Shown here: piece after piece, positions 6,711-63,304 of the stretch | How the letters are laid out: every line of letters starts with the position of its first letter | Numbering within the stretch: position 1 is the stretch's first letter | Assembly (NCBI GenBank): GCA_035529375.1 | Contig: DATKWU010000009.1 | Location: forward strand, 289,111-353,110 | Reading direction: 5' to 3' | Length of the DNA stretch: 64,000 nucleotides | Source: Patescibacteria group bacterium | GTDB lineage: Bacteria > Patescibacteriota > Microgenomatia > PFEM01 > JAHIFH01 | Notes under the pieces: model-generated | What the model saw: only the letters and a program-made list of their open reading frames with translations | What the model was told of the DNA's origin: nothing | Database searches by the model: none | Program-made: the position numbers and the translations under genes

Positions 6711-6718
6711 TCAATCTT

Positions 6719-10959: not shown

Positions 10960-10963
10960 CATT

Positions 10964-14767: not shown

Positions 14768-14787
14768 TTTAAATTTAACAAAATAAT

Positions 14788-15501: not shown

Positions 15502-15550
15502 AGTCTTAGGATACTAGGAAATAAATAAAGAAACAAGAGTATTTTCCTTC

Positions 15551-15579
15551 TTGACATTCTGTGGATAAGTTGTTTAAAC
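15551..15579 (+). promoter_or_regulatory. Putative dnaA promoter with an embedded perfect DnaA box (TGTGGATAA, i.e. TTATCCACA on the minus strand, at 15560-15568)
   Basis: TTGACA-17 nt-TTAAAC, with the consensus DnaA 9-mer between the hexamers, 40 nt upstream of the dnaA start codon. This is the classic autoregulatory arrangement. Confidence 0.45.
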
Positions 15580-15618
15580 TGGAAATCACCCCTGCTCCAC
15601 GGTAATTAATCTTTAAAC

Positions 15619-16998: not shown

Positions 16999-17198
16999 AA
17001 ATTTCTAGTTATTAACTTATCCACCAAAGAGTGAAAAATATTAACCAAGATTTGAACAAAAAGAAAAACCGAAAAGTAGGTTAATTGGCAAACAAATATT
17101 CACTTGTCAACAAACCAACAACAACAACAATTATTAATAATAAGATTAGGTCCTTGAGATCTTAAAAAATTAAAAGTAAAATTGGGGAGAAGCTTTAA
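16999..17198. promoter_or_regulatory. Candidate oriC / DNA-unwinding region between dnaA and dnaN
   Basis: 200-bp AT-rich intergenic region with a near-consensus DnaA box TTATCCACC (17017-17025), a weaker one at about 16991-16999, and an (AAC)n/AT-rich tract. Gene orientation switches here: minus-strand genes to the left, plus-strand dnaA/dnaN to the right. Confidence 0.4.
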
Positions 17199-18326: not shown

Positions 18327-18333
18327 ATTAGGA

Positions 18334-42432: not shown

Positions 42433-42876
42433 GTGAAAGTTATTAACCGTCGAGCTCGCTATGATTACTATCTTTTAGAGAAGTTTGAAGCAGGCATTGC
42501 CTTAACTGGCTCAGAGGTCAAATCAGTTAAGGCAAGCAAACTAAGCCTTAACGAAGGCTTTGTTAAGATAATTGGAGGCGAGGCTTGGTTACTTAATGCC
42601 TATATCAACCCTTATCCTTATGCCGATAATCGAGATTATGATTCCAAGCGTAACCGGAAGCTGCTTTTACATAAAAACGAGCTCCTAAAATTAAGCCAGC
42701 AAACTAAGGAAAAGAATTTGACGATTGTACCTGTTTCGTGCTATACTAAGGGTCGAAAAATCAAACTAGAGATTGCCTTAGCTAGAGGGAAAAAGAAGTA
42801 TGATAAAAGAGAAACAAAGAAACGCAAGGCAATTGAAAGAGAAATTGAACAGACATTAAAAGATAAGGGGATGTAA
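42433..42876 (+). CDS. smpB: SsrA-binding protein SmpB
   Basis: VINRRARYDYYLLEKFEAGIALTGSEVKSVK... is an SmpB signature. GTG start. Directly upstream of the tmRNA. Confidence 0.9.
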   Translation: MKVINRRARYDYYLLEKFEAGIALTGSEVKSVKASKLSLNEGFVKIIGGEAWLLNAYINPYPYADNRDYDSKRNRKLLLHKNELLKLSQQTKEKNLTIVPVSCYTKGRKIKLEIALARGKKKYDKRETKKRKAIEREIEQTLKDKGM

Positions 42877-43236
42877 GTCTCGACGGGAAGGGTTCTTTAA
42901 AAACAGCAAGCCGACCTGAAATAAGCCGTTAAAAGGTTTCAAAAAAAATATAACTGGCAACCCAAAAGTTGCTAATTATGCTTATGCTTACGCTTAAAAG
43001 CGCTTGGGCATAAGCCATTCATAGTTTTTTCTCCTGGTGAGAAACTATGGGTGACAACCCAGCCAGGATACAATTCAATTGGTTTGGCTAGACTGATTGA
43101 GCCAAGTTTAATTAGCCTTGGTTTTAACTTTCCGGTTGACAGGATCAGGTTAAGACGACAATTAAGAGTCAACTAAGCTTGTAGAAGTTTTTAGAAATTC
43201 TTTTCGGACGCCGGTTCACTCCGGCCATCTCCACCA
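42867..43236 (+). ncRNA. ssrA: tmRNA (ssrA), ~370 nt, not in the ORF track
   Basis: 5' end GGGGATGTAAGTCTCGACGGGAAGG (compare E. coli GGGGCUGAUUCUGGAUUCGACGGGAU). 3' tRNA-like end GGACGCCGGTTCACTCCGGCCATCTCCACCA. The 7-bp acceptor pairing GGGGATG/CATCTCC is preserved. Internal tag ORF GGC AAC CCA AAA GTT GCT AAT TAT GCT TAT GCT TAC GCT TAA (42956-42997) encodes GNPKVANYAYAYA*. Confidence 0.75.
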
Positions 43237-43277
43237 GATCATCTTTAATTCTTAATAGACTTAAGAAATAGAAACTA

Positions 43278-43447
43278 ATGAAAGAGGGGGGTCCCACCGC
43301 TGCCGAAATCATCGCAATTTATGACGAAGTCCGTGGTTACTTCCGGACTCCTCAGGCAATTAAAGGTATCTCTCCTGAGAAAGAAGAAAAACTTCCTACT
43401 AAACAAACTCCTGAACAAGTCCAAGATAAAACTTCTCCTAAGAAATA
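43278..43447 (+). CDS. Possible small ORF (56 aa) between tmRNA and comF
   Basis: My translation gives MKEGGPTAAEIIAIYDEVRGYFRTPQAIKGISPEKEEKLPTKQTPEQVQDKTSPKK. No homology evidence. It is below the ORF-track length cutoff. Confidence 0.2.
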
Positions 43448-43468
43448 AACCCTGTTAAAATTAGTTTA

Positions 43469-44137
43469 ATGCTGCTCGATCTCTTTTTTCCTCGTCGTTG
43501 TTTGGGTTGTGGTGCTTGGGGTAATTACTTTTGTCGAGATTGCCAGCAAGAGATTAAAACCATCAAACTCCAGATTTGCCCGATTTGTCAAAAACCAGCT
43601 CTTCAAGGTCAGACTCATCCAGTTTGTCAAACGCCTTACTCTCTTGATGGTTTAACTTCAATTTTCACTTTTGAAGGGGTGATTAAAGAAGCGATTGGCA
43701 AATTAAAGTATTGGTTAATTACGGATCTAATTGAGGAACTGGTGGCTCTTAGTGTTGATCAAATGCCTCGTAAATTAACCCGATCTTTAATTCTCGTTCC
43801 CATTCCCCTTCATCCGCGCCGCCAACGCTGGCGAGGTTTTAATCAAGCAGAGCTTTTAGCAAAGATTCTAGGTAAACAGTTTAATTGGCAGATCTCCACT
43901 GATTATCTAATCCGTTCTAAAGCCACTCAACCCCAAATTAAGTTAAAAAGCAAAGAAAGAAAAATAAATGTTCAAAAAGCTTTTAAACTTAATCCCAAAG
44001 CTAGAGCTAAAGTGAGAAACAAAAAATTGATTGTTTTTGATGATGTTTGGACGACTGGTTCCACTCTACGTCAGGCTGCACAGGTTTTAAAAAGAGCCCA
44101 GGCTCAAGAGGTTTGGGGTTTGACCTTAGCTAGGTGA
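43469..44137 (+). CDS. comF: ComF-family protein (double zinc ribbon + phosphoribosyltransferase domain)
   Basis: N-terminal CLGCGAWGNYFCRDC...CPIC zinc ribbons. C-terminal PRTase PRPP loop LIVFDDVWTTGSTLRQA. Confidence 0.8.
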   Translation: MLLDLFFPRRCLGCGAWGNYFCRDCQQEIKTIKLQICPICQKPALQGQTHPVCQTPYSLDGLTSIFTFEGVIKEAIGKLKYWLITDLIEELVALSVDQMPRKLTRSLILVPIPLHPRRQRWRGFNQAELLAKILGKQFNWQISTDYLIRSKATQPQIKLKSKERKINVQKAFKLNPKARAKVRNKKLIVFDDVWTTGSTLRQAAQVLKRAQAQEVWGLTLAR

Positions 44138-44173
44138 AAAAAGGCTAGTTTTTTGCTAAAATAGGAACCATTA

Positions 44174-44262
44174 GGAAGGATGCCAGAGTGGTTAAATGGG
44201 ACGGTTTGCTAAACCGTTGGTCTGAAAGGACCGCGTGGGTTCGAATCCCACTCCTTCCGCCA
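44174..44262 (+). tRNA. tRNA-Ser (anticodon GCU), type II with long variable arm, CCA encoded
   Basis: GGAAGGATGCCAGAGTGGTTAAATGG... Anticodon loop TTGCTAA. Variable arm TGGTCTGAAAGGACCGC. T-arm GTGGGTTCGAATCCCAC. Acceptor GGAAGGA/TCCTTCC. Confidence 0.85.
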
Positions 44263-44349
44263 GGTGGGGTGCCGGAGCGGCTAAACGGCCCGGTCTTGAA
44301 AACCGTGGAGAAAGCAATTTCTACGTGGGTTCGAATCCCACCCCCACCG
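44263..44349 (+). tRNA. tRNA-Ser (anticodon UGA)
   Basis: GGTGGGGTGCCGGAGCGGCTAAACGG... Anticodon loop CTTGAAA. Long variable arm. GTGGGTTCGAATCCCAC. Acceptor GGTGGGG/CCCCACC. Confidence 0.85.
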
Positions 44350-44402
44350 CCTCTCCCATCATTAACAAAAATTTGCTATCATAGAAATAAGGAAAACTAA
44401 TT

Positions 44403-44927
44403 ATGCCTGCTCAAAACAATCAACCAGAAATAAAACCACGTACTTTAAAAACTTTGTTAGCCTGGAAAGCACCAGAACGACATTTTAAAAAGCGAACGCG
44501 GGAATATTTTACAACCATTGGCGCGATTATCTTTTTAATTGGTGTTATTCTCCTTTTCCTCCAAGAATGGCTTTTGATTGTCGTGATGGTGGCTTTGGTT
44601 TTTGTGGCCTACATTCTTTCGACAGTAGCGCCGCGGGAAGTAGAACATCAAATTACTAATCGATGGATTGTGACCGGTGGGAGGAGATATTATTGGGAAC
44701 AATTAGGCCGTTTTTGGTTTACTGAAAAGCAGGGCCAAGAAGCTTTGATGGTCGAAACATTTTTTGGTTTACCCGGCCGTTTAATCTTGCTCTTAGGCGA
44801 GGTTAAGAAAGATCAGGTTAAGAAAATTCTCTCTGAATACCTCCCCTTTGAGGAACCAGAAAAAACCTGGATCGATAATGCTAGCGATTGGATCTCGCGG
44901 CGGGTTCCTTTAGAGTCGTCTTCTTAA
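44403..44927 (+). CDS. Hypothetical two-TM membrane protein
   Basis: Hydrophobic pair IGAIIFLIGVILLFL / LLIVVMVALVFVAYILS. Sits between tRNA genes. Confidence 0.5.
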   Translation: MPAQNNQPEIKPRTLKTLLAWKAPERHFKKRTREYFTTIGAIIFLIGVILLFLQEWLLIVVMVALVFVAYILSTVAPREVEHQITNRWIVTGGRRYYWEQLGRFWFTEKQGQEALMVETFFGLPGRLILLLGEVKKDQVKKILSEYLPFEEPEKTWIDNASDWISRRVPLESSS

Positions 44928-44933
44928 GAATCA

Positions 44934-45007
44934 GCGCCCGTAGCTCAATTGGACAGAGCATCTCGTTGCGGACGAGAAGGTTGTGAGTTCGAGTCTCACT
45001 GGGCGCA
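44934..45007 (+). tRNA. tRNA-Arg (anticodon reads GCG; atypical)
   Basis: GCGCCCGTAGCTCAATTGGACAGAGCATCTCGTTGCGGACGAGAAGGTTGTGAGTTCGAGTCTCACTGGGCGCA. Anticodon loop TTGCGGA. Confidence 0.75.
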
Positions 45008-45012
45008 CTTGT

Positions 45013-45099
45013 GGTGGGATGCCGGAGTGGTCTAACGGGCTGGTTTCGAAAACCAAGCGTTCTGTAAAGGACACGGGGGTTCGAATCCCTCTCCCACCG
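45013..45099 (+). tRNA. tRNA-Ser (anticodon CGA)
   Basis: GGTGGGATGCCGGAGTGGTCTAACGG... Anticodon loop TTCGAAA. Long variable arm. TTCGAATCC T-loop. Acceptor GGTGGGA/TCCCACC. Confidence 0.85.
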
Positions 45100-45107
45100 C
45101 TTTGCAG

Positions 45108-45181
45108 GCGCTCGTAGTTCAATTGGATAGAACGTCGGATTCCGGATCCGAAAGTTGGGGGTTCGAATCCCTTCGGGCGCA
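45108..45181 (+). tRNA. tRNA-Arg (anticodon CCG)
   Basis: GCGCTCGTAGTTCAATTGGATAGAACGTCGGATTCCGGATCCGAAAGTTGGGGGTTCGAATCCCTTCGGGCGCA. Confidence 0.8.
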
Positions 45182-45184
45182 CCG

Positions 45185-45661
45185 ATGACCAAGAAAAAAC
45201 CAGTTAAAAGGGAATTTTCCGCTGGTGGGGTGGTTTTCAAAAAAGAAAAGAAAAAAACTCTTTGGCTAATCATTCAACCTGAAATTAAGGATGAACTTTG
45301 GCGTCAAGACAGATGGCAGCTGCCTAAAGGTTGGATTGATGAGGGTGAAACTGGTTCTCAGGCGGCTTTAAGAGAAGTTAAGGAAGAAGGCGGTGTTGAA
45401 GTTGAGGTAATTGAAAAAATCGGTCGGATTAATATTTTCTTTTACAACGAAGAAAAGCAGAAGGTCCTTAAAAACATTGTTTTTTTCTTAATGGAATACC
45501 AAAAGGGAAGCATCAGAAATCATTCTTGGGAAACAAAAGAAGCGATTTGGTTGCCTTTTCAAAAGGCTTCCAAGAGATTAACTTTTGATTCAGAGAAGAA
45601 AATTTTAAAAAAAGCCAAAGAACTTTTAGAAGCAAAAGAGAAACAACCGAAACTGATTTAG
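45185..45661 (+). CDS. NUDIX hydrolase
   Basis: Nudix box GWIDEGETGSQAALREVKEEGGVEV. The start codon is placed after the tRNA-Arg; the track ORF begins at 45155 inside the tRNA. Confidence 0.8.
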   Translation: MTKKKPVKREFSAGGVVFKKEKKKTLWLIIQPEIKDELWRQDRWQLPKGWIDEGETGSQAALREVKEEGGVEVEVIEKIGRINIFFYNEEKQKVLKNIVFFLMEYQKGSIRNHSWETKEAIWLPFQKASKRLTFDSEKKILKKAKELLEAKEKQPKLI

Positions 45662-45747
45662 GAGAGGTGGCAGAGTGGTCAAATGCGCACGCTTGGAAAG
45701 CGTGTATGGCGGCAACGTCATCGTGGGTTCGAATCCCACTCTCTCCG
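45661..45747 (+). tRNA. tRNA-Ser (anticodon GGA)
   Basis: GGAGAGGTGGCAGAGTGGTCAAATGC... Anticodon stem-loop CACGC-TTGGAAA-GCGTG. Long variable arm. GTGGGTTCGAATCCCAC. Confidence 0.85.
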
Positions 45748-45791
45748 CTAGTCTGCGGAAATAATGCGGTAAATATGCAGGAAATAATTTT

Positions 45792-48726: not shown

Positions 48727-49449
48727 TTGATTTACTTTGTTCGATATGCTAAAAATGGATTAATGGGGTATGCAGGTAAGTTAGAAGAAAAAAGACAAGC
48801 TCTTGAACTTCGCCAAAAAGGCATTTCTTATGGTGAAATCCAAAAAAAAGTTCCAGTTTCTAAAGACACACTCAGTCGTTGGTGTCGAGATGTAATCCTG
48901 GTTCCCTCTCAGATGGAGAGATTGAAAAAGAGAAGACTAAGAGGAGCAGAGAAGGGAAGAATAATTGGTGCAAAAAAACAACAACGGGATCGAATTAAAA
49001 GAACCAAAAGATTAATAAAGGAAGGCAAAAGAGAAGTTGGAAAATTGGCCAAGAGAGATAGATTTACGGCTGGAATAGCCCTTTATTTGGGTGACGGGTA
49101 CAAATCAGATAAAAGCATTGGTTTTTCAAATTCTAATCCTCAAATAATTTCTTTTATGATGAGATGGTTTCGGGAGTTTTGCCAAGTTCCTGAAGAAAAA
49201 TTTCGTGGACAAATTTGGATTCATGAAGGTTTGGATGAATTGAAAGCAAGAAGATATTGGTCGAAAATTACCAGTATTCCAATAGGTCAGTTTCAAAAAA
49301 GTTATATTGCTAAGAATAAAAAAGAAAGCAGAAAAGTTAGGAAAAAATTACACGATTATGGTGTATTTGCAATTAGAATCTCTAGTGCGGAGAGACAGAG
49401 AAAAATTCTTGGTTGGATAGCTGGTATTTTAGGCAAGGAATTAGTATAA
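48727..49449 (+). CDS. HTH-domain protein with a LAGLIDADG-like motif (candidate free-standing homing-endonuclease-like protein)
   Basis: N-terminal HTH (LELRQKGISYGEIQKKVPVSKDTLSRWCRD). Basic linker. Then TAGIALYLGDGYKSDKSIGFSNSNPQIISFMMRWF, which resembles the LAGLIDADG block. Ends 20 nt before the intron-containing tRNA. Confidence 0.45.
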   Translation: MIYFVRYAKNGLMGYAGKLEEKRQALELRQKGISYGEIQKKVPVSKDTLSRWCRDVILVPSQMERLKKRRLRGAEKGRIIGAKKQQRDRIKRTKRLIKEGKREVGKLAKRDRFTAGIALYLGDGYKSDKSIGFSNSNPQIISFMMRWFREFCQVPEEKFRGQIWIHEGLDELKARRYWSKITSIPIGQFQKSYIAKNKKESRKVRKKLHDYGVFAIRISSAERQRKILGWIAGILGKELV

Positions 49450-49468: not shown

Positions 49469-49753
49469 TCCGCGGTAGCTCAATGGTAGAGCGACTGCCT
49501 GTCAATTTGGCAGCTTTTCGCTGAAAGGCGAATTGAAAAACCGGGTGAATTCAGGGAAACCTAAATCTTTTTGATATGGTAATCCTGAGCCAAGTCCGCC
49601 CAGGCGGAAAGGTGCAGAGACTAGGTGAGTACACCTTAAAGCGCCCGGCACCTAAAGCTTAAAGCTACGGTGATGAGATAGTCCACACCTTTTGGAAACA
49701 AAGGGATTTGTGTAAGCAGTTGGTTGTAGGTTCGAATCCTACCCGCGGAGCCA
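49469..49753 (+). tRNA. tRNA (Asp-GUC or Asn-GUU; exon junction ambiguous) interrupted by a ~210-nt group I intron in the anticodon loop
   Basis: 5' half TCCGCGGTAGCTCAATGGTAGAGCGACTGCCTGTCAA (acceptor, D-arm, 5' anticodon stem ACTGC, loop CTGTC...). 3' half (A)AGCAGTTGGTTGTAGGTTCGAATCCTACCCGCGGAGCCA (3' anticodon stem GCAGT, T-arm, acceptor CCGCGGA pairing perfectly with TCCGCGG, discriminator G, CCA). The two halves are separated by ~210 nt. Confidence 0.7.
49504..49715 (+). other. Group I self-splicing intron (putative) within the tRNA anticodon loop
   Basis: Contains the conserved group I core elements R (GCAGAGACTAGG, 49615-49623) and S (GATGAGATAGTCCAC, 49676-49684), whose GACTA/TAGTC segments can form P7. 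The sequence GGCAG at intron nt 4-8 is complementary to the exon anticodon-stem CTGCC (possible P1/IGS). Exact boundaries +/-3 nt. Confidence 0.55.
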
Positions 49754-51298
49754 GTTGGAACTTAATATACCAAGTTTAGCCTCATTCAAAACTTGGAGTG
49801 CCGGAGTGTATTCGACCTCCATTATTTTCTTATCTTGTACCCATATCTTTTGGAAGAAAAAGTGTAAATAAGCACGCTTGTGATCAATGTCCGAATCCTC
49901 ATAGGTTTGAACAATATTTCGAGTTAGTTTAAGTACTTCATTTATGATCGAAGTATCAATGGTATTGGTCTTATCCTGTTCCACAAGTTCTTTCTGAATG
50001 ACTAGAGCTTCTGCATCTAGTTGAGTATTATATTTTTGGAGTTGTTCGACAGGAAGTTTGTTATCAAAGTAGTCTTTTTCAATCTTTATTCTTTTTTGGT
50101 CAACTGCATCCCTTTTGTTATATAGAGCTTTTTTAGCGCGCTGAATACGATCAATACTTTCGTCATAAACACGAGTGATATTGGTTTCTACTGCTTGGAT
50201 GAATTCATCAGTAAAGGCTAGCTTATCGACCTCTTGTTTTACTTGGTCCTCAAGATTAGTGAGTAATACATATCTTGAAGGGCAACCACCACGCTTACCA
50301 GTTTGAGAGCAGTGATACATTCCAATCTTTCCATTACCAGTTTTATATTTTTCGTGATAATGCCACTCTGCAACATAACGTCTGCCACAGTCTTTGCAAA
50401 AGACAACGCCCCGAAGAAGAAAGTTGTGTTTTCTCTTGCGAAGACCATAATCGCCTTTTTCTGAGAGTATCTTTTGAACTAAATCAAAAGTCTGCTTATC
50501 AACTAGAGGTTCGTGTTTCCCCATACCTTCATGTCCTCCGTGTTTCATCCAACCCCAATAAAATGAATTCTTAAGCATATTGCCAACAATAGAGTATTGA
50601 ATCGGTTTCCCTTTTCTACCTGTTACTCCATTTTTGTGGAGGTACTGGCGAATATCATAAATTGCATAGTCACGAGTTGCATACAATTTATAAGCCTGTC
50701 GAACAAAAGGAGCTATAGCAGGATCAGGAATGACAATCTTTTTGTCGTAAGAGCCTTCAGGATTTTTATTGACAACATTTAAGTAACCCAATGGCGCCCA
50801 CGAAGGATAATATCCTGCTTTAAACTTTTCAGAAGCTGTTTGTTTGACCTTGTAGCTAGTCATACGAGGAAAGAAAGCGTTCATTACCGCCATCATTTCA
50901 TTCATGGTTCTACTTACTGGATCACCATTAATTACTCCTGAAAGAGGAACGATTTTAACTCCACATTTTTCTAGTTCGCTAACAATGAAACAGTATTCGA
51001 AAGTGTCACGAGAGAGTCGGGATATGTCTTGCACAACAAGATACGCAATATCTTTTTTGTAACATCTACTTAGTAATGCTTGGAAGCTTGGTCTGTTTAA
51101 AGTAGTACCTGAAATCCCATTATCAACGTAGCAATCCTCAGCTAGGTACCCACCTAACTCTTGAATCTTCTCTAGTGCCTTTATTTGTTGGGTTTCAATA
51201 CTAAGATTATCTACCTGATCCATTGTGGACACTCTAGCGTAGATGATGCATTTTGGTTTACTTCCGTGATCGCTATTTATATCTTGTTTTAACTGCAT
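49739..51298 (-). CDS. Large serine recombinase (resolvase-type catalytic domain + recombinase domain + zinc ribbon), integrase of the element
   Basis: N-terminal IYARVSTMDQ catalytic-Ser motif and SRLSRD. Large C-terminal domain with CKDCGRRY...C zinc ribbon and a coiled-coil. Its 3' end overlaps the left direct repeat and the tRNA 3' exon. Confidence 0.85.
   Translation of the reverse strand: MQLKQDINSDHGSKPKCIIYARVSTMDQVDNLSIETQQIKALEKIQELGGYLAEDCYVDNGISGTTLNRPSFQALLSRCYKKDIAYLVVQDISRLSRDTFEYCFIVSELEKCGVKIVPLSGVINGDPVSRTMNEMMAVMNAFFPRMTSYKVKQTASEKFKAGYYPSWAPLGYLNVVNKNPEGSYDKKIVIPDPAIAPFVRQAYKLYATRDYAIYDIRQYLHKNGVTGRKGKPIQYSIVGNMLKNSFYWGWMKHGGHEGMGKHEPLVDKQTFDLVQKILSEKGDYGLRKRKHNFLLRGVVFCKDCGRRYVAEWHYHEKYKTGNGKIGMYHCSQTGKRGGCPSRYVLLTNLEDQVKQEVDKLAFTDEFIQAVETNITRVYDESIDRIQRAKKALYNKRDAVDQKRIKIEKDYFDNKLPVEQLQKYNTQLDAEALVIQKELVEQDKTNTIDTSIINEVLKLTRNIVQTYEDSDIDHKRAYLHFFFQKIWVQDKKIMEVEYTPALQVLNEAKLGILSSNWLRG
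49748..49771. repeat. Left copy of the 24-bp direct repeat GAGCCAGTTGGAACTTAATATACC (tRNA 3' end + 18 nt); putative attL
   Basis: Exact 24/24 match to 60378-60401. The match extends (with a 1-nt indel) by AAGT. Confidence 0.6.
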
Positions 51299-51349: not shown

Positions 51350-51658
51350 TTACTCACTAAAGGCACTCCGTAAGGGCTTTCTGATTCGTTCTTCCTGTAC
51401 TTGATCAATTAACAACTGACACCATTGTTGGGCAAGACTATCAATGTCGATACGGGGGGTAGTATCTTTAGAAAAAGGCAACGGGCAAGATAACTGTGTC
51501 GCTTTAGTGGGCTTGTTAACCCTTCCTTTTATCCCTCTTTTTGATTTCATAAGGGCAGGTGTACTACTTTTTTCATTTCTATTAACTTTTTTATTAGAGT
51601 CTTGAAACTCAAGGCTATTGACTCTTGAAATAGTGTTGTTTTCTAATTTTGTAGTCAT
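51350..51658 (-). CDS. Hypothetical small basic protein (element cargo)
   Basis: 102-aa ORF, K/R-rich (SKRGIKGRVNKPTKA). Confidence 0.4.
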   Translation of the reverse strand: MTTKLENNTISRVNSLEFQDSNKKVNRNEKSSTPALMKSKRGIKGRVNKPTKATQLSCPLPFSKDTTPRIDIDSLAQQWCQLLIDQVQEERIRKPLRSAFSE

Positions 51659-51689: not shown

Positions 51690-52421
51690 TTAGTTTTCTG
51701 AGCTAATAATTAAATGTTTCTGATATTCATTCCAATCACCATCAAAAAACACATCGACAATATTTTTCTCTTGTTCATTATTTTCGATTGCTACCTTTTC
51801 AGTTACGTTTTCATCAATCCACCTCATATCATCAGGAGTCAAACCTTCATAATGACCTTCTTTATAAATCTTTTGATATTCGGAGTCGCTTCTAACATCT
51901 TGTTGAATAAGAACCATCCTATTAGAACCAATAGGAAAAGAACCTAACTCACCCTTAAAGGAACCTAAAGCTTTAGAGGGTATATTCAAGGCCAAATCCG
52001 TTACTTTTTTAGGAATTATTTTCGCTTTTTCAGGATAAAAACAGACATTTTGAAGAATATTATCGAGAGTTTGAGAAAGTTTTTCCGATTTAGCAAAGTC
52101 AGCCGCTCTGCCTCCAAATGAAACACCGTATCGTTCAGGGAATTTTATTTTGAAAACTGATCTTTTCTTATCAACTATTTCAATGAAGCTTTTATTAAGA
52201 AGTCCATTACGCCAATCATTAACAGTTTCAATACCTTTATTGAAATATTCTGCTACGACTTCGGGATAAGCGATGAATTGACCATAGTTATCGTGTTTAT
52301 GGTCAAAATCCATTGAGTCTAGGTAGTATTCAAACAATAGAAATTCTTGAGAGGTTAAGATTCTCTTTTGCAGGAGAATCCATCTGTTTCTGTGTGTTAC
52401 TCGATAACCATTTAACTTCAT
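51690..52421 (-). CDS. Hypothetical protein (element cargo)
   Basis: 243-aa ORF. No recognisable motifs. Confidence 0.45.
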   Translation of the reverse strand: MKLNGYRVTHRNRWILLQKRILTSQEFLLFEYYLDSMDFDHKHDNYGQFIAYPEVVAEYFNKGIETVNDWRNGLLNKSFIEIVDKKRSVFKIKFPERYGVSFGGRAADFAKSEKLSQTLDNILQNVCFYPEKAKIIPKKVTDLALNIPSKALGSFKGELGSFPIGSNRMVLIQQDVRSDSEYQKIYKEGHYEGLTPDDMRWIDENVTEKVAIENNEQEKNIVDVFFDGDWNEYQKHLIISSEN

Positions 52422-52485: not shown

Positions 52486-53271
52486 TTAGCGAGTGAGAAG
52501 ATTGGAATATGTTTTTACTGCCTTGAGAACATCAAGATCAGTGGTCAATTCGTTCTCGTATTTTTTGACGTATTCATCGGCTATTTGTTGATATGTTTTT
52601 CCTTTTATCCTCTCCCAGTACCATTCACGGTATTTTCGAGTGTTAGGAGTAACATCAACTCTTGGTCTATAGTATGACAATCGCTTATCAGTTTTCATCA
52701 GTTCTTTTGCTTTGCGGAATTCTTCTTTTACTTCCTCATAAGTGGATGTTGGGGACACAAATATTGCAACTCGTTCAAATGTTTCCCATGCCCCCATTTC
52801 ACCGAAATTAACCACTTTTGCTTCCGTGGGTTTAAAGTGTTTGTCATCAACTGCACCGCAGAATATTGCTTGTTCGATAGCTTCGACAAAATAGGTTGGC
52901 CTGTTAAATTCAAAGCAGATAAAGTTACATTCAGCATCTAGCATTATTGGTATATCGTTTTTGATACTAATAAGTTCGTAGAAATTAGGAAATGACTCCT
53001 CAAGTTCGCCGATTTTAGAATACTTAGCCAAGTTAACCTCAACAGCTTCTTGAAAATGTGTGTCGAACAGATGTGAATCAAATTCTTCGTCAAAATCATT
53101 AACAGAGAATAAGTTGGGAACAAAATATGTCCTTCTTAGGTCAGGAAGTAAATCAATGAAGGCAGGCTTGTCGAACAGGAAAGCAAGCTCTTGATAGTAA
53201 ACGTCGTTGTTTGTTCTTATGTCGATTTTGAAGTCTTGAAGATAGGCTTTGTCGTTCTTTCTAATTTTCAT
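52486..53271 (-). CDS. Hypothetical protein (element cargo)
   Basis: 261-aa ORF. No recognisable motifs. Confidence 0.45.
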   Translation of the reverse strand: MKIRKNDKAYLQDFKIDIRTNNDVYYQELAFLFDKPAFIDLLPDLRRTYFVPNLFSVNDFDEEFDSHLFDTHFQEAVEVNLAKYSKIGELEESFPNFYELISIKNDIPIMLDAECNFICFEFNRPTYFVEAIEQAIFCGAVDDKHFKPTEAKVVNFGEMGAWETFERVAIFVSPTSTYEEVKEEFRKAKELMKTDKRLSYYRPRVDVTPNTRKYREWYWERIKGKTYQQIADEYVKKYENELTTDLDVLKAVKTYSNLLTR

Positions 53272-53379: not shown

Positions 53380-55107
53380 TTAGTTACTAGTGTGTTGTGG
53401 GGCTCTTTTTAATAGATTGAGTAGTTCTCCTTTTTGAATTTGAGCTACTTGTTCGGGCATAAGAGTAAACGAAAATTTAGGATTATCTGATTCGGCTGCT
53501 AAAATAGCCGTACCGATTCTTGTATCATCAATATAAATACTCACAAAATAAATTCCTGGTTTTGGTATTTTAAAAATCATATCACCATCTACGGGACTGA
53601 TGACAAAACTGGAAGAAGAAACAACTGTGGCTGTGTCAACAAGAAATGACTCTCTTGTTGAAGCATTAACTAGCCTAATTTCAAGATGATGCGTTCCTAT
53701 TGGTAGCCTAAAAGCACTTGCAATATGTGCTCTGAGCGGAAGTGGATAGTTTTTCCAGTACGACACCATAAATTGATTTTCAAACTTTAGATAGGATTCT
53801 TCGTATATGGACTTTTCACAGATAGTAAAGTAAACCAGTTCAGCTTTGCCAGACTTTTCAATCACTTCGTCTACGCATTTCCTTAAATGATCCATCATTA
53901 TTTCTTGTTGTTTTTTCATAAACACATCTTTTTTATCAGGGGAGGGAACATCTTCTTTAACATGACCAAAATACATTGCACGCCTTCCTATTAATTGTTT
54001 GTCAATATAACATTCCAATATTGCTGGACCAGGTTTTTCTACGGATAAGTAAATCTTGGAAACAGTATCAATTTCTTCTGGTAAATACTCAATGTGAACA
54101 TCTTGACTATATACTTCTTTTTCTTCGAAATTTTTCAATACGAATCTTAGCTTATGATCACCAGCAGAACCCCAAAGACCAACTGCCGCAATTAACTCAA
54201 CCGAAAAAGGGAATTTATGCGAAGCAATATTCGTTAGTGGATTAAAAAATTCAATAGTTCCTGGACTAATTTTAATTCCGGTGCAAGTTAAAAAATAAGT
54301 TAGGTGCCATTTAACAGCTGATTCTCCAGGAGGCATTTCAAAATCATGAAACTGTAACCTTTTTGCAGGTTCAGTGATTAATTTTATTGGCTCAACTAGT
54401 TGAGTGGTTATATTTTTAGTTAAATCGTGTTGCGTCCAAACACCCTTTTCCATTTCAATGCTTTTAGAGTTAGGTTCTTTATCTGGGTCAATGTCAACAA
54501 ATCCATACCACAAGGGTCTTATCCCATCTGATTCGATTAAGATTGTCTGGAATAATCCCCCAACGGTATCTATTCCCTGTCTTCCTAACTCACTTCCTAG
54601 ATTAATGTAGAGCAAATCAGCCTTTTGTTTTAAAGATTGATTAGGTTTTTCAAATAGGTTTGCGTTTTTTCGAAGATAACCAGCAACGATATTACCTGAA
54701 CCAATAACTGTAAATCCTTCATTGACTTTTTGGGGAGCAAAGGATGGAAACTCAAAAGAAGATACTTCAATTTTGCCTGAATTATTAATTGTTCCAAGGA
54801 TAAAAGCTAAGGGCTCTTTTATTTTTTTATAATAGAATTTTGCTATCCTACATAGCTCTGATACCATTACGTTAGGAATATTTAACTTTGATTTTTTCTT
54901 TAGCGTTCCTCTTAGGCTATTTATCACTAACGCTGCTGTTTTAACATCACCAGCGTATCCAATTACCATTCTATTTCCTAAAGGCAATATTTTTTGTAAT
55001 TTATCCTCAAGAATGTTAGCGTTGATTCTTTTATCCACCCAAGTCGCTCGGCTATCAGAAATCATCACTGTTCCTTCTTTGAATTTGTAGGCTAAAACCA
55101 TTGTCAT
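53380..55107 (-). CDS. HslV/proteasome-beta-like Ntn-hydrolase domain fused to a ~370-aa C-terminal domain of unknown function (element cargo)
   Basis: N-terminus M-TMVLAYKFKEGTVMISDSRATW (Thr directly after the initiator Met, D-x-R/Q-AT). RMVIGYAGDVKTAALVINSL and TVIGSGNIVAGYL parallel HslV TTIVSV...AGDGQATLG, VIAGFAGGTADAFTLFE and IAIGSGGNYALSAA. Confidence 0.6.
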   Translation of the reverse strand: MTMVLAYKFKEGTVMISDSRATWVDKRINANILEDKLQKILPLGNRMVIGYAGDVKTAALVINSLRGTLKKKSKLNIPNVMVSELCRIAKFYYKKIKEPLAFILGTINNSGKIEVSSFEFPSFAPQKVNEGFTVIGSGNIVAGYLRKNANLFEKPNQSLKQKADLLYINLGSELGRQGIDTVGGLFQTILIESDGIRPLWYGFVDIDPDKEPNSKSIEMEKGVWTQHDLTKNITTQLVEPIKLITEPAKRLQFHDFEMPPGESAVKWHLTYFLTCTGIKISPGTIEFFNPLTNIASHKFPFSVELIAAVGLWGSAGDHKLRFVLKNFEEKEVYSQDVHIEYLPEEIDTVSKIYLSVEKPGPAILECYIDKQLIGRRAMYFGHVKEDVPSPDKKDVFMKKQQEIMMDHLRKCVDEVIEKSGKAELVYFTICEKSIYEESYLKFENQFMVSYWKNYPLPLRAHIASAFRLPIGTHHLEIRLVNASTRESFLVDTATVVSSSSFVISPVDGDMIFKIPKPGIYFVSIYIDDTRIGTAILAAESDNPKFSFTLMPEQVAQIQKGELLNLLKRAPQHTSN

Positions 55108-55252
55108 AACTCTCTTTTTCCTCCTCTTGTATTATATCCGAACTATGAGTTTATATACCCGAATAAATTTATTACAATACAAAAAGAAAACTAAAGAAAA
55201 TTCAACCTTTGTCGTTGTGTTATTTCCCCATTTTTGGTTTAATATAAACCAT

Positions 55253-58000
55253 ATGAGCAACATGGGAGAACCATTATCAGGAGCAACACCACTTGAAGCA
55301 ATAAAACCGCCAGTTGTTGCCACTTCTCCAGAAAATCAACCCATTAACCCACTTGCTGAACAATACCAATCTAAAGCACAAGAACTAAAGATTAAACCTG
55401 TGCAGAGTGGTGAGTGGATTGCAACTGATGGCGTTGAATATATTCAATGGGGTGATGAGAAACATCAGTTTGCTTCCAATACAGATGAACAAACTTTCCC
55501 AACCAGATTAAATCAAGTCGGAACCTATGATTCTAATAATGGCACGCTTGCTTTTGTTGATGAAAAAGGCGTAATGCATGCAGGACACTCAACGGATGCA
55601 AATTTTCAAGCATTAGAACAGGCAGGATATAGACGTGGTGGTATTTGGGTTCCATTCTCCAACGGAGAAGTGCCAGCAGATCCAGAATTAAGAAAGCAAT
55701 ATATAGAACTTAGGGAAAAGGGGAGAGAAATAAATAAAAAAGCAAATATTGAACGACACCTTCATGTTTATAGTGAAACCGCTGAGAGAAAAGGAATAAA
55801 ACCTGTTGAGGGGGGTCTGTTTATGATGGTTGATGGTATTGAATACAGACATTGGGGAAACGAAACAGGGACAATAGACACCAATACAGACGGTTATAAC
55901 ATGGCTATTCGAAGAGTTGAACAAGTGGGAACTTTCGATGGTAATAACGGAAGAATGGCTTTTGTGGATGGACAAGGAAGAATGTGGGCTGGTGCAGCTA
56001 CTAGCGAAAACTATGAAGCAATAAATAAAGCTGGTTATACAAGGGGTGGTATCTGGGTTCCCTTCTCTAATGGAGAAATGCCAACCGATAGAGCAACTTA
56101 CGAACAACTAAGGGATGTTTTAACTGGAAAACACGCAGAACAATTAAAAGCCGAAAGGGATGCTAGGGTTGAAGAAATAATTGAAGGAAGAAAAGTTTTA
56201 TTTGGTGATACTGCGATATTGCCAGATAGGAACGAACTATTTGTCAAAGTTGCAGATAGAGCAGAGCGACAATACATAAACGAAGCTGAATTAGTTAAGG
56301 AAAAGTTACAACCCAGAACTGAAAAAGATAACGCTGGTTTTGAACGAAGTATATATACAATTAACGGTGTTACCTTTTCTTTTAAAGGTCGAGAAGAATT
56401 ACCAACTTATCAAACATTAACAAGTTCAAGAACTACGCTATTGGGAGAGGCTCCGAATTGGGTTGAAGTAGAAGATTATCAAAAATATCAAGAACAATTA
56501 AGACAAACTCAAACCCAAGAAGGTGCTACACAACATTTTGTAACAAATAAAACGCTTCTAGGTGTTGTTGAATTAGCAATAACATTAGGAAGTAAAGATA
56601 GTTCACTAACACAACTTCGTGGGGAATTATATAAAGGAGTTTATAGCCAAAGAGCATTGACACTATTAGATGCTTTAGTTGATTCTAATTATGGTGATTC
56701 GATCAGATATGGTGGTAAACCAGAAAGCCAAGCTGAAGCGGTGGTTTTATTATCTTTACTTGGTGATATTCAAGCACAAACTGCTGTTGCTGAAAATGTT
56801 GAGTCGCAAAGAGAATACGAGACAAGCAAACAAGCTCATCGTGAGCGAAGAAAAATTGACAATGAACCATTAAAACCACAGGAATTGTGTGCCGTACATG
56901 CTACAAGGTATAAGCCAGAAGCTACAGAAGATGGGGATTTTTTAATTCCTACTACTTTTGATGCAACTAAAGGAAAGGTATTGCGAAATACAGTTCACAC
57001 AGCGTTAAATCACAAAGTTGCAGGTCATATGTATGGTTCTTGGGGCGATGCGGGATATGTGGTTATTTCGCCATTTGAGAAAATGATGGAAGCAAATGGA
57101 GTTCCAGCAGTTTTGAATACCGTTGATACCTATTGGGCAACTAACCCTGGCGAACCATTAGTTTTTGCTAACGGAACTCTTGTGGCTCCTGGTGGTAATG
57201 AAGTTCAAGGATTGTATCAGCAAGAAGGAAATGTTGTAAAGTTTAAATCGTCTGGTTTAGATAGACAGGATTTAATAAATCTAACTGCCTATTCTAGGCA
57301 AAATGGTTATCAAGATAGTTTTTCAAGAAGTATAGACGAAGCATTAAGCGGAGCGTTACATCCTTATGGTTCTGCTATGGAATTAGCAGATCAGTGGGAT
57401 TTTAGTACTACCCAACTAGCTCTAAATCAATTCCTTTACCATGCAGATAATAGTTATGGTCATCAACCTGCACTTCTAAATTTGTTGACAGTAGAAATTG
57501 AGGGTCAACCGGAATCAAATATCGAAACCAGACTCAAAAATTTAATTGAGCAGTCAGGGGCAATATCGGGATTAAAGCCAGAAGTTACTGATAAAGATAG
57601 TGCTGTTACTACATTTGCAAAAACTCTCGCTGATAGAATTAGGTCAACAATGTTTTCTGAATTGAATGAGTTAACGGTTAGGGAGGCAATTAGACAGAGG
57701 GGATTTGCAGTTCAACCTGGAGGAATGTGGGCTTGGGGTGATAGTTGGACGGTAACTGCAGAAACAGGTGCTTTAGGAGAAGAATTAGGAGTGCCTGTTG
57801 GAGCGCATACCAACATGGTAGACCATACGTTAACAGAAAGATTTTCTGGAGCGATTAGTCAAGCCACAGAGGGAGAACGTGGTAATGGGAAATTTAATTG
57901 GACAAAATATAATGCAAACTATGATGATTTAGTAAAGGACTTGGACCCAAAAACTCGCAGAGTTCTTTATGCTTCAGGACTTTTGACCGCTAGAGGATAA
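55253..58000 (+). CDS. Large hypothetical protein with two tandem ~125-aa repeats (element cargo; divergent from the Ntn-hydrolase gene)
   Basis: Repeat 1 GVEYIQWGDEKHQF...NNGTLAFVDEKGVMHAGHSTDANFQALEQAGYRRGGIWVPFSNGEVP. Repeat 2 GIEYRHWGNETGTI...NNGRMAFVDGQGRMWAGAATSENYEAINKAGYTRGGIWVPFSNGEMP. Start moved to ATG 55253 (MSNMGEPLSG), preceded by TTGGTT-17-TATAAA. The track ORF from 55127 would leave only 19 bp to the divergent gene. Confidence 0.55.
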   Translation: MSNMGEPLSGATPLEAIKPPVVATSPENQPINPLAEQYQSKAQELKIKPVQSGEWIATDGVEYIQWGDEKHQFASNTDEQTFPTRLNQVGTYDSNNGTLAFVDEKGVMHAGHSTDANFQALEQAGYRRGGIWVPFSNGEVPADPELRKQYIELREKGREINKKANIERHLHVYSETAERKGIKPVEGGLFMMVDGIEYRHWGNETGTIDTNTDGYNMAIRRVEQVGTFDGNNGRMAFVDGQGRMWAGAATSENYEAINKAGYTRGGIWVPFSNGEMPTDRATYEQLRDVLTGKHAEQLKAERDARVEEIIEGRKVLFGDTAILPDRNELFVKVADRAERQYINEAELVKEKLQPRTEKDNAGFERSIYTINGVTFSFKGREELPTYQTLTSSRTTLLGEAPNWVEVEDYQKYQEQLRQTQTQEGATQHFVTNKTLLGVVELAITLGSKDSSLTQLRGELYKGVYSQRALTLLDALVDSNYGDSIRYGGKPESQAEAVVLLSLLGDIQAQTAVAENVESQREYETSKQAHRERRKIDNEPLKPQELCAVHATRYKPEATEDGDFLIPTTFDATKGKVLRNTVHTALNHKVAGHMYGSWGDAGYVVISPFEKMMEANGVPAVLNTVDTYWATNPGEPLVFANGTLVAPGGNEVQGLYQQEGNVVKFKSSGLDRQDLINLTAYSRQNGYQDSFSRSIDEALSGALHPYGSAMELADQWDFSTTQLALNQFLYHADNSYGHQPALLNLLTVEIEGQPESNIETRLKNLIEQSGAISGLKPEVTDKDSAVTTFAKTLADRIRSTMFSELNELTVREAIRQRGFAVQPGGMWAWGDSWTVTAETGALGEELGVPVGAHTNMVDHTLTERFSGAISQATEGERGNGKFNWTKYNANYDDLVKDLDPKTRRVLYASGLLTARG

Positions 58001-58065: not shown

Positions 58066-58317
58066 TCACTTTTTGGAAACTGCTTCTTTTTTAATTTTAA
58101 CCTCTTTAATTTCGTTATTCACCGTTGTTGTTTCTTGAACCTGTTTTGCTTCTAGTTTCTTTGCTTTGCGTCTTGCTAAATATTCCTTGTGTTTGGCACG
58201 ACCTTTTTCACTTTGTTGGTAGCGAAGCCTTGCCTCTTTCCCTTTTGAACTTTGAGCGTATTTTTTTTGGGCTTGTGTCCAACCTTTCTGTTTTTTGTTT
58301 TTAGTCGTTTCTTCCAT
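58066..58317 (-). CDS. Small lysine-rich basic protein (83 aa; element cargo)
   Basis: Strong SD AAGGAGGTGA 7 nt upstream of the ATG. K/R-rich (KKQKGWTQAQKKYAQSSKGKEARLRYQ...). The alternative overlapping frame 58176-58418 lacks an SD. Confidence 0.5.
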   Translation of the reverse strand: MEETTKNKKQKGWTQAQKKYAQSSKGKEARLRYQQSEKGRAKHKEYLARRKAKKLEAKQVQETTTVNNEIKEVKIKKEAVSKK

Positions 58318-58520: not shown

Positions 58521-59429
58521 ATGAAAAATATTTCAATATTATTTCCCAAATCGGAGTTTACGTCCGATCAACTGCAAAAATTAGGTTTCGCAGGACAAGT
58601 TTCTTTTATAGAAAGTGGTAGTGAGAGTTCACTAAAAGATTTAATTAAGCTCTCAAAAGATGCCGACATACTTGCGTTTAGCCCAGATAAAATTGGCAAG
58701 TGTGCTTCAGAATGGTTGCTCAAAATACTTGAAGCCTCACCGAAAGTAAAAGGGTTAGCTTTAAATACAACCCATGCTAACTATGTTGATATGGGTTATT
58801 GCAACGAAAGACGCATAAGAGTTTTTACAATTCTTGATGACTCTGCTGAGGCAATCGCCGAGCATGTCATATTACTTATCTTAGGCTGTGCTAAAAGATT
58901 GTTTATTAATGATCGAAGAACTTACAGGCGAAAGTACCAACCAGAACTAGGATTTGAAATCAGAGGTAAAAGCCTAGGCGTTATCGGTTCAAATTTGGAG
59001 GCGCAAAGGGTTGTGTCGCTAGCAAAAGCAATAGGAATGACAGTATATGCGACAGAACGCCTTGAGGGAGCAATTAGGAAACCATCCGTGCTTCAATCAG
59101 ACATTATTACAATTCATTTACCTGATACAGAAGAAAATAAAAAGTATTTGTCTAAAGAAAAAATTGCACTACTAAAAGATGGGGCGATTGTCATAAATCT
59201 TTCGAGCAGGGATATAGTCGATGAAAAAGCTATGGCGGAAGCATTAAAGAAAAGACTGGTTGACCAATATGCTTTTGAGGCGGAAAGCATGAAGAAATCA
59301 CCGCTTGGGGAAAGTGAATTTGCTCTAATGTTTAAGCCATTTTGTAAATTCACAAAAGAATCACTTAGGAGAAACAGGAGTCTGTGGGTCATAAATATTT
59401 CTAACTTGGCTGGGAAACCGACTTCCTAA
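58521..59429 (+). CDS. D-isomer-specific 2-hydroxyacid dehydrogenase-family protein (NAD-binding domain; possibly non-catalytic)
   Basis: GKSLGVIGSNLEAQRVVSLAKAIGMTVYATER (Rossmann), then ITIHLPDTEENKKYLSKEKIALLKDGAIVINLSSRDIVDEKAMAEAL, which matches the 2-Hacid_dh_C pattern. SD AAGGAGG. Confidence 0.55.
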   Translation: MKNISILFPKSEFTSDQLQKLGFAGQVSFIESGSESSLKDLIKLSKDADILAFSPDKIGKCASEWLLKILEASPKVKGLALNTTHANYVDMGYCNERRIRVFTILDDSAEAIAEHVILLILGCAKRLFINDRRTYRRKYQPELGFEIRGKSLGVIGSNLEAQRVVSLAKAIGMTVYATERLEGAIRKPSVLQSDIITIHLPDTEENKKYLSKEKIALLKDGAIVINLSSRDIVDEKAMAEALKKRLVDQYAFEAESMKKSPLGESEFALMFKPFCKFTKESLRRNRSLWVINISNLAGKPTS

Positions 59430-59595: not shown

Positions 59596-60255
59596 ATGGA
59601 CATGTTTATTAAATGGCTATCAGAAAATTACGGGTGGGTTGTAAGCCTACTGATACAAGGCTTTATCGCATATCATGTTTTCTTTCTTTCTCAGAAGTTA
59701 TCAAGTAAGGCTAGATTAGAACATAAAGAATCGATAAAGCGTAAGGCAGATGAGTTGTTGTCAGAAGTACGAAGGAAAAAACTAAATAGTGAGGTTTATT
59801 TAGTAAACATTAATAGATATTTCAAAGACTACCCATCAAACACAGAAAAAAGATTTGAAGGATATTCCCATATCAGAGCTGAAATAAAATCAACAAGATT
59901 TGATGGAATTGAGTTTTTTGCTGAACCACCCGTAGAAGTGTATAAAAAATCAAACGGAAGCCTATCTTTCAAGGGGACTAAGAAAGAAAAAGTATTTAAT
60001 GCTTATCCCGTTGGGGTTGTTCCTTATGAGTGGATTGAACATGTTGATATAAGTGGGGATGAATACGCTTATGTTCCATTATTCTATTGTTACTACAAAG
60101 GCAAAACAAACTGGAAGTTTTGGAAACGCTTCTTATTCTTTGGCTACCCCTATAAAAAGATGCTCTACTATAAATTGAGTGATGTGTATGACGAAAGAAA
60201 TGATCCTAGCGAAATGAAGTACTCGTATATCGATCAACCTATTGGGAAATTCTAA
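59596..60255 (+). CDS. Hypothetical N-terminally TM-anchored protein (element cargo)
   Basis: TM WVVSLLIQGFIAYHVFFL. Aromatic-rich C-terminus. Confidence 0.45.
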   Translation: MDMFIKWLSENYGWVVSLLIQGFIAYHVFFLSQKLSSKARLEHKESIKRKADELLSEVRRKKLNSEVYLVNINRYFKDYPSNTEKRFEGYSHIRAEIKSTRFDGIEFFAEPPVEVYKKSNGSLSFKGTKKEKVFNAYPVGVVPYEWIEHVDISGDEYAYVPLFYCYYKGKTNWKFWKRFLFFGYPYKKMLYYKLSDVYDERNDPSEMKYSYIDQPIGKF

Positions 60256-60264
60256 CTAACCGCC

Positions 60265-60382
60265 AGGCAAGGTTTCACTTTTTCTATTTCCTCTCTGATT
60301 TGAGCTACAAGCCTAAAGTCAGAGAAAGCCTTGATAATACAAGATAATTGCGTGGTTATATTAGAGGTGCGATCCTCGAGCC
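60265..60382. repeat. ~120-bp att-proximal sequence, copy A (partner at 63124-63250, ~70% identity)
   Basis: AGGCAAGGTTTCACTTT...CCTTGATAATACAAGATAATTGCGTGGTTATATTAGAGGTGCGATCCTCGAGC versus AGGCAAGGCTTCACTTT...CCTTGATAATATGGGAAAAACTCTTGGTTATATTAAGGTTTCGCCCTTCGAGC. Confidence 0.4.
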
Positions 60383-60401
60383 AGTTGGAACTTAATATAC
60401 C
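60378..60401. repeat. Right copy of the 24-bp direct repeat; putative attR
   Basis: Identical to 49748-49771. Confidence 0.6.
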
Positions 60402-63123: not shown

Positions 63124-63250
63124 GTTAAAGCTAGGCAAGGCTTCACTTTGGCAATCTCTTCCCTCAATTCCTGTACAAACCTGAAATCTTCAAAAACCTT
63201 GATAATATGGGAAAAACTCTTGGTTATATTAAGGTTTCGCCCTTCGAGCT
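63124..63250. repeat. ~120-bp att-proximal sequence, copy B (degenerate)
   Basis: See copy A. It ends ...CCCTTCGAGCTAGCC, a degenerate version of the attR junction ...ATCCTCGAGCCAGTTGG. Confidence 0.4.
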
Positions 63251-63304
63251 AGCCTCAGAAAGCTCCATTTATTGGATTTTTTTGGTCTGATATAATAAAA
63301 ACAT

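Follow-up and report, generated by a model that had tools for sequence, protein, structure and literature searches.

A probable single-gene proteasome-type hydrolase cassette on a mosaic serine-recombinase island in a Patescibacteria tRNA-Asn gene

Prokaryotic proteasome homologs extend far beyond the 20S proteasome, HslV, Anbu and BPH, and a function is known for almost none of them. The gene for Anbu is part of a conserved operon that also encodes ATP-grasp, α-E and transglutaminase-like proteins, and the C-terminus of Anbu forms a long coiled-coil helix. Fuchs, Alva and Lupas (2021) described 22 further subfamilies of proteasome homologs, some of which are phage-associated and some of which have C-terminal domains, but none of which has a conserved context or a known function (PMC8665760). 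In the same study, RPC was restricted to Proteobacteria and has no helix H2, FC4 was confined to Firmicutes and carries phage-tail-like domains, and DAH is a distant group centred on Actinobacteria (PMC8665760). Here, a 64,000-nt stretch of DNA from a Patescibacteria group bacterium (assembly GCA_035529375.1, contig DATKWU010000009.1, positions 289,111 to 353,110), referred to as the window, was analyzed. It encodes a 575-amino-acid (aa) proteasome-like N-terminal nucleophile (Ntn) hydrolase, referred to as the protease, next to a divergently oriented gene for a large repeat protein of most likely 915 aa, both on a mobile island at a tRNA-Asn gene. In the original prediction, made from the sequence of this region, the two genes were put forward as a possible two-gene system. 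It is concluded, with a probability of roughly 70 %, that the protease instead is an AAA+-independent, single-gene proteasome-type Thr protease cassette on mosaic mobile islands, and that the 915-aa protein is not its partner.

The protease gene is located at 53380-55107 on the minus strand, as identified by open reading frame (ORF) listing, Pfam, a family profile and an AlphaFold model, and the ORF listing confirmed the predicted positions of both this gene and the large neighbouring ORF. In the public annotation the protein appears only as 'hypothetical protein'. It had been predicted to start with Met-Thr and to adopt a proteasome-type Ntn fold, and both were borne out. The Pfam Proteasome family (PF00227) matched the protein with 26.0 bits against a gathering threshold of 22.4 and was found in all 34 aligned family members (best E = 1.5e-11), and the family profile matched proteasome β2 chains in the PDB (E = 4e-8). 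The sole match in an NCBIfam scan was an archaeal β-subunit, below threshold. In the AlphaFold model, which had a predicted local distance difference test score (pLDDT) of 91.6 and a predicted template modelling score (pTM) of 0.85, the αββα sandwich by which proteasome-like Ntn hydrolases are recognized is formed by aa 1-205 (54493-55107) and is followed by a short β subdomain or linker (aa 206-262).

For comparison, 61 protease loci besides the window were retrieved from collections of genomes, metagenomes and viral sequences and by exact look-up; where they have to be told apart, loci are designated by L and a number. When the family was aligned to β2, Thr2, D18, K39, G53, G136-S-G138 and D164 of the protease corresponded to Thr1, Asp17, Lys33, Gly47, Ser129 and Asp166, respectively. 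D18, K39, G136, G138, K160 and D164 are invariant in the family alignment and G53 is nearly so. The residue after the start codon is Thr in 55 and Ser in one of the 56 protease loci in which the 5' end is present, and it is always directly followed by D-S/T/C-R. The equivalents of the catalytic Thr1, Asp17 and Lys33 are thus conserved in the family, in line with the active site that had been suspected originally. Judged from alignment and model, the protein belongs to the proteasome-type Ntn hydrolases and has a complete canonical set of active-site residues. Since it has no propeptide, excision of the Met would expose the Thr nucleophile.

The ~370-aa C-terminal extension of the protease had been described as free of recognisable motifs, which did not hold. 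It contains two β-sandwiches that resemble DUF6941 and were identified as homologs of one another by hhalign (98.5 %, E = 3e-15). In the AlphaFold model, β-sandwich 1 (~aa 263-385, 53953-54321, minus strand) and β-sandwich 2 (~aa 421-542, 53482-53847, minus strand) are joined by a helical linker (aa 386-420), and the second sandwich was matched by DUF6941 (PF22091) in 28 of the 34 family members. A full-text literature search for DUF6941 gave no papers. An exhaustive hidden Markov model search with the C-terminal module alone against 1.84e9 cluster representatives (50 % identity) resulted in 94 proteins. Those matching the full-length module were essentially all 550-610 aa long with the module at ~residues 250-575, the shorter matches are compatible with fragments, and the only outliers were a stand-alone 128-aa DUF6941 protein and a weak match in a PKD-repeat protein. 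This outcome indicates that the fusion of a proteasome domain with the sandwiches is a rare, fixed architecture built around an immunoglobulin-like, binding-type fold. Three distant relatives (L056, L057 and L058; ~26 % identity, e.g. L058 10001-10801) match residues 1-245 only, i.e. the Ntn domain with the short β subdomain but without the DUF6941 pair, and one of them starts with Met-Ser; the enzyme core therefore occurs also as a protein of ~265 aa.

Both genes are enclosed by an exact 24-nt direct repeat, GAGCCAGTTGGAACTTAATATACC. Its left copy (attL core, 49748-49771, plus strand) consists of the last 6 nt of the tRNA and 18 nt within the 3' coding end of a recombinase gene, and its right copy (attR core) is located at 60378-60401 on the plus strand. 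By our own estimate, the chance expectation of such a repeat is ~1e-5. The copies at the tRNA 3' end and at 60378-60401 delimit an island of 10.6 kb, and the original placement of both genes inside an element was thereby upheld. The large serine recombinase of the island (519 aa, 49739-51298, minus strand; Pfam Resolvase, Recombinase and Zn_ribbon_recom) showed sub-threshold NCBIfam similarity to CcrB, CcrC and XisF, and its final codons and stop overlap the tRNA 3' end. The predicted attP junction is …GGTGCGATCCTC-GAGCCAGTTGGAACTTAATATACC-AAGTTTAGCC… and the predicted empty attB site is …CCTACCCGCG-GAGCCAGTTGGAACTTAATATACC-CAAGTGCTTG….

The island is a mosaic, with a left arm in common with L004 and L069 and a right arm in common with L059. 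Its parts are conserved to different degrees between elements: the protease is 78 % identical at the aa level, compared with 28-54 % for the recombinase and 64-66 % for the host RpoD, and in the right arm the large-protein gene is 88 % identical to that of L059 at the nt level, compared with 65 % for the adjacent dehydrogenase gene. As an alternative, the 915-aa gene was considered to be host flank of a 5.4-kb element ending near 55.2 kb. This was based on L061, in which rpoD, tRNA-Asn and the 915-aa gene follow in a row, and on the differing elements found upstream of the gene in L059 and L062. It was rejected because the gene is enclosed by the 24-nt repeat in the window and, as a 918-aa homolog, by a 15-nt repeat of the tRNA 3' end in L062/L064, 11.6 kb downstream; the repeats at 60378 and in L062/L064 led to its replacement by the mosaic-island reading. 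A displaced tRNA 3' end was looked for at the 55.1-55.25 kb junction and none was seen. Two observations qualify this reading. An exact empty site was not found, and in L061 the tRNA-Asn lacks a recombinase and is directly followed by the large-protein gene. In addition, large serine recombinases normally leave only 2-bp crossovers, so that the 24-nt repeat reflects similarity between attP and attB and does not prove the mechanism. A search of viral contigs for the att core gave no match. Taken together, the region is best explained as one mosaic 10.6-kb serine-recombinase island of a candidate phyla radiation (CPR; Patescibacteria) genome, inserted into the 3' end of a tRNA-Asn gene that contains an intron.

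The protease and the large-protein gene are indeed divergent, with start codons 145 bp apart, as had been predicted; that they share a promoter region could not be maintained. Relatives of the 915-aa protein were found in none of the 61 other protease loci (tblastn; for L072 by ORF listing and Pfam only), and the protease was found in none of the 10 large-protein loci that were compared, so that the two-gene system failed the co-occurrence check in both directions. The comparison with L069/L070 is decisive against pairing: the protease encoded there is 78 % identical and lies at the same tRNA-Asn site (order dnaG, rpoD, truB, tRNA-Asn), but an ArsR-ArsD-ArsA operon takes the divergent position beside it. 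Conversely, unrelated genes are located upstream of the large-protein gene in L059/L060, including those for a 1516-aa helicase and a SpoVG-like protein. The upstream signals of the protease (55108-55145, minus strand) are shared by the window with L069 and L070 and also with L071, where the protease lies in an unrelated context, and consist of a Shine-Dalgarno sequence GGAGG (reverse complement of 55120-55124) and a -10 box TATAAT (reverse complement of 55131-55136). On the protease side, similarity to L069 fades ~40-60 nt upstream of the ATG, beyond both of these signals, whereas similarity to L059/L060 on the large-protein side begins at 55208. The sequence in between, 55146-55207, is unique to the window and constitutes the junction of the protease-bearing left arm and the right arm with the 915-aa gene. 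Since the homology breakpoints lie within the 145-bp spacer, the spacer is a mosaic junction and not a conserved shared regulatory region, and since the protease has its own conserved promoter in addition, it is an autonomous cassette. The 915-aa protein is a separate island module, i.e. unrelated cargo, and not a partner of the protease.

The G+C content of the protease loci ranges from 28 to 65 %, which shows that the family is not confined to Patescibacteria; it is rare and sporadic across phyla, centred on Patescibacteria with scattered high-GC lineages. Clustering of the neighbours in 59 protease loci identified no conserved partner. The sole recurrent neighbour was a large serine recombinase, located within ~10 kb of the protease in the window, L002, L004, L013, L020, L069/L070 and L072. 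A Pfam scan of 150 neighbours gave a heterogeneous picture, in which families beyond rank 13 match one neighbour each, and no AAA+ unfoldase was found among the families that match at least 2 of the 150 neighbours. Neighbours of a conflict type include Schlafen/AlbA_2 proteins (L020, L032), DUF2326 and CTD10 of ABC-3C systems, a KAP NTPase, a reverse transcriptase, PD-(D/E)XK nucleases and DNA methylases. In L027, a soil contig of 63.5 % GC, a Pup-ligase gene (PafA/Dop family, 5609-7174) is located 2.4 kb from the protease homolog; this is the sole indication of a connection with pupylation or a proteasome pathway, and because it was seen in one locus only, it is not treated as linkage. In L072 (IMG/VR UViG 2791355329_000009), the region 359-13014 encodes a large serine recombinase, PIN_12, a dCTP-deaminase-like protein and a small resolvase, and this contig looks like an integrative island rather than a phage.

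Combining these results, the following mode of action is proposed for the autonomous cassette. Removal of the initiator Met would expose Thr1 and thereby activate the enzyme, and the equivalents of Asp17, Lys33, Gly47, Ser129 and Asp166, as placed by alignment and model, would complete a canonical active site. The tandem DUF6941-like sandwiches most likely bind the substrate or target, or else serve in assembly, and the protein would then act as a substrate-selective peptidase without AAA+ rather than as a general, unfoldase-fed degradation chamber. Its function may benefit the mobile element or the host in a conflict or niche-specific setting, as suggested by the sporadic spread across phyla, by the serine-recombinase, variable and defence-type neighbours, and by a conservation above that of the surrounding element. 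Such a conditional benefit would explain why the distribution is patchy and mobile while the sequence is strongly conserved.

Several points weigh against this proposal. The activity, the Met removal and the oligomeric state of the protease are all inferred. The conflict or niche role draws on weak context, as many protease neighbours are ordinary metabolic or housekeeping genes and a PADLOC scan of the 150 neighbours gave few matches, all methyltransferases, with no defence enrichment beyond these. The family was absent from 50,697 phage genomes (tblastn), only one predicted viral contig (L072) carries a homolog, and no phage structural genes were present in the 14.5 kb of that contig that were examined.

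A more specific version can be offered tentatively, in which the protease is an unfoldase-independent single-gene effector: the sandwiches would recognise a foreign or host protein, which the exposed Thr1 would cleave or ligate, and the gene would be an anti-phage or inter-element conflict module. If true, a role of the defence type would be seen for the first time in a proteasome homolog. The closely related reading as a single-gene anti-phage or abortive-infection protease, in which the sandwiches sense a phage protein and then free or activate the Thr protease against host or phage proteins, is unlikely on balance. It would fit with the mobile-island location, with the sporadic distribution across phyla and with some immediate neighbours of a defence type, such as the PIN and dCTP-deaminase-like genes of L072. 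However, no model of PADLOC-DB 2.0 was matched by the protease or by the 915-aa protein, which agrees with the earlier statement that the fusion protease paired with a repeat protein is not a described system; the matches among the neighbours are few and all methyltransferases, many contexts are housekeeping, and the propeptide-less active site offers no obvious off-state. PHROGs scans of both proteins gave nothing useful, and a literature search for proteasome-like proteins in defence gave nothing relevant.

If the protease instead were a self-compartmentalising housekeeping enzyme for general quality control, i.e. a ring-forming analogue of HslV, BPH or 20S, this would count against the single-gene cassette. 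The canonical fold and active site would suit such an enzyme, BPH and Anbu likewise lack dedicated unfoldases (PMC8665760), and the Pup ligase in the single high-GC locus points in the same direction. We nevertheless consider it rather improbable, because the family is very rare (94 representatives among 1.84e9) and patchy, is found on mobile islands without a recurring α-subunit or AAA+ partner, and has a rigidly packed ~370-aa C-terminal module (pTM 0.85) unlike compact ring subunits. A connectase-like enzyme, i.e. a sequence-specific transpeptidase or ligase instead of a degradative protease, is improbable as well. As connectase shows, a monomeric homolog of the proteasome that carries additional C-terminal domains can act as a ligase (PMC7980362; PMC8665760), and the window protease also has extra domains and no partner. 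Finally, a two-gene system under a shared divergent promoter, with the 957-aa protein as substrate, adaptor or sensor of the protease, is very improbable, as the adjacency of two divergent genes within one repeat-bounded island and the conservation of both above their neighbours are outweighed by the negative co-occurrence, the ars operon in place of the large protein beside the nearest protease homologs, the unrelated genes upstream of its nearest homologs, the breakpoints inside the spacer and the protease's own promoter.

The large repeat protein is encoded at 55253-58000 on the plus strand. Two tandem repeats had been noted in it and were found at aa 38-155 (55364-55717) and aa 173-288 (55769-56116), with 49 % identity (E = 2e-39). 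They are followed by a conserved central α/β domain (~aa 546-665) and a helical C-terminal region. The predicted length of 957 aa corresponds to the mechanical ORF, which starts at 55127 and was recovered as such, but not to the likely product. As the homologs are ~915 aa long and nucleotide conservation with the nearest relatives begins only ~45 bp before the ATG at 55253, the true product most likely has 915 aa. The predicted model of the 915-aa protein had a pLDDT of 88.1, and no sequence-family match and no match to PDB sequences were identified. The protein of L059/L060 is 91 % identical to that of the window, and distant homologs are located in ordinary chromosomal neighbourhoods. In L068, a tRNA-Pro gene (6867-6940) lies directly upstream of a distant 611-aa homolog of Dojkabacteria, which may be a coincidence or a further tRNA-linked island. 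In the Levyibacteria island of L062 (also L063 and L064), the 918-aa homolog is followed by a gene for a 1554-aa protein without Pfam domain (13704-18368), which also lies within the repeat-bounded island.

The remaining genes of the island follow the order recombinase, orf102, orf243, orf261, protease, 915-aa gene, orf83, dehydrogenase-like gene, orf219 and a non-coding sequence of ~120 nt. On the left arm, orf102 (51350-51658, minus strand) is a small gene without family match in Pfam, PHROG and NCBIfam, and orf243 (51690-52421, minus strand) encodes a possible DnaD-like, replication-initiator-like backbone protein (PHROG 186, E = 2.9e-5) that is kept beside the protease in L004 (60 %) and L069 (48 %). 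The ORF orf261 (52486-53271, minus strand) is a backbone gene with a 46 % identical homolog in L004; in L069 no tblastn match was found and a 304-aa gene takes the same position. On the right arm, orf83 (58066-58317, minus strand) is a small lysine-rich ORF of uncertain coding status that is not present in the otherwise syntenic L059. It is followed by two cargo genes on the plus strand, a 2-hydroxyacid-dehydrogenase-like gene (302 aa, 58521-59429; Pfam 2-Hacid_dh_C and 2-Hacid_dh), which comes after the large-protein gene in L059 too, and the ORF orf219 (59596-60255), without Pfam match. The conserved non-coding sequence at the right end (60262-60377, plus strand) abuts the right att repeat and is 86 % identical to L059 14108-14234. 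Towards its 3' end it looks like the degenerate 3' half of a tRNA; no Rfam match was obtained, and the fold z-score of -1.9 is unconvincing. A degraded third copy (69 %) was observed 2.8 kb further right at 63130-63252, and may have been left behind by an older island between 60.4 and 63.25 kb.

The integration target is a tRNA-Asn(GUU) gene (49469-49753, plus strand; Rfam, ARAGORN) with a ~210-nt group I intron (Rfam Intron_gpI, 99 bits at 49493-49705) at anticodon-loop position 35/36. When introns were permitted, ARAGORN reported 49469-49753 as a tRNA-Thr(UGU); with the splice boundary moved by 2 nt it becomes Asn(GUU), in agreement with the orthologous tRNA-Asn genes of L061, L062, L004 and L069. 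Group I introns at position 35/36 of tRNA-Asn(GUU) have been described in Patescibacteria, where splicing was shown in vitro and the same ARAGORN mis-call as tRNA-Thr(UGU) was documented (PMC13011429). The orthologous tRNA-Asn of L004 has a 222-nt intron. In several Patescibacteria lineages, the 3' end of the gene is a repeated insertion site for distinct large-serine-recombinase islands of only 3-12 kb, each with its recombinase ORF stopping within the 3' end of the tRNA (window 49739-49771; L062 6832-6906; L069 16288-16362; L004 6039-6356), an overlap that was seen with different recombinases in L062-L064 and L069. Between rpoD and tRNA-Asn, the window contains a 240-aa ORF with a weak HTH_28 match (48727-49449). 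L004 and L061 lack this ORF, and in L069 truB takes its place. Further upstream, at 42867-45748, a tmRNA gene (tag peptide GNPKVANYAYAYA) and then six tRNA genes (4 Ser, 2 Arg) precede dnaG and rpoD.

With its rare, fixed architecture, fully conserved active site and high-confidence model, the protease family offers a clean case for study, and the lack of partner genes together with its own promoter makes the protease easy to express and test. If the sandwich pair is a target-recognition module, a subunit of a degradation chamber would have been turned into a stand-alone specific enzyme, as in connectase. The small mosaic serine-recombinase islands that reuse the intron-containing tRNA-Asn bear on gene flow in the reduced genomes of Patescibacteria.

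Compared with known systems, the protease shares the family match with 20S β subunits (MEROPS T1, PF00227) and differs from them in lacking a propeptide. 20S β subunits have a paired α gene and a proteasome operon, whereas each locus of the window family contains a single gene of the proteasome type, without Pup or AAA+ partners that recur between loci. The window family also adds a ~370-aa C-terminal tandem β-sandwich module and is found as a single gene on mobile islands. The families of the Anbu operon are not among the 25 neighbour families listed, and the C-terminus of the window protease is formed by two β-sandwiches instead of a coiled-coil helix. HslV belongs to the same fold family and has the same Met-Thr start with a Thr1 exposed by Met removal, but is a compact ~175-aa subunit encoded beside the AAA+ ATPase HslU, a description that does not apply to the window protease. 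Neither do the features of connectase, which lacks helices H1/H2, has a helical lid between S3 and S4 and occurs in archaeal methanogens. Like the window family, RPC, DAH, FC4, DGH and connectase belong to a set of divergent, largely uncharacterised homologs, some of them associated with phages or mobile elements and some with added C-terminal domains, which lack both a conserved context and an AAA+ partner (PMC8665760). The window family is placed near canonical β subunits, keeps H1/H2 and carries two copies of DUF6941, and is set apart from RPC, DAH and FC4 by their descriptions.

The island shares its terminal recombinase (Resolvase, Recombinase and Zn-ribbon), site-specific insertion and variable cargo with other large-serine-recombinase elements that target tRNA or other conserved genes, e.g. 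the staphylococcal cassette chromosome (SCC) with CcrB/CcrC, the XisF element and phage large serine integrases. In contrast to these, the tRNA-Asn islands are small (3-12 kb), no phage structural or conjugation genes were detected in them, their target is the 3' end of an intron-containing CPR tRNA-Asn, and the recombinase ORF ends within the tRNA. The tRNA gene, the intron type, its position and the mis-call are all as described for Patescibacteria (PMC13011429); that paper does not contain the word 'recombinase', whereas here the tRNA-Asn is also an integration hotspot (window, L004, L062-L064 and L069). It is concluded that the window family belongs within the known, diverse superfamily of proteasome homologs, and that its assignment as an enzyme and its mobile-island context are solid.

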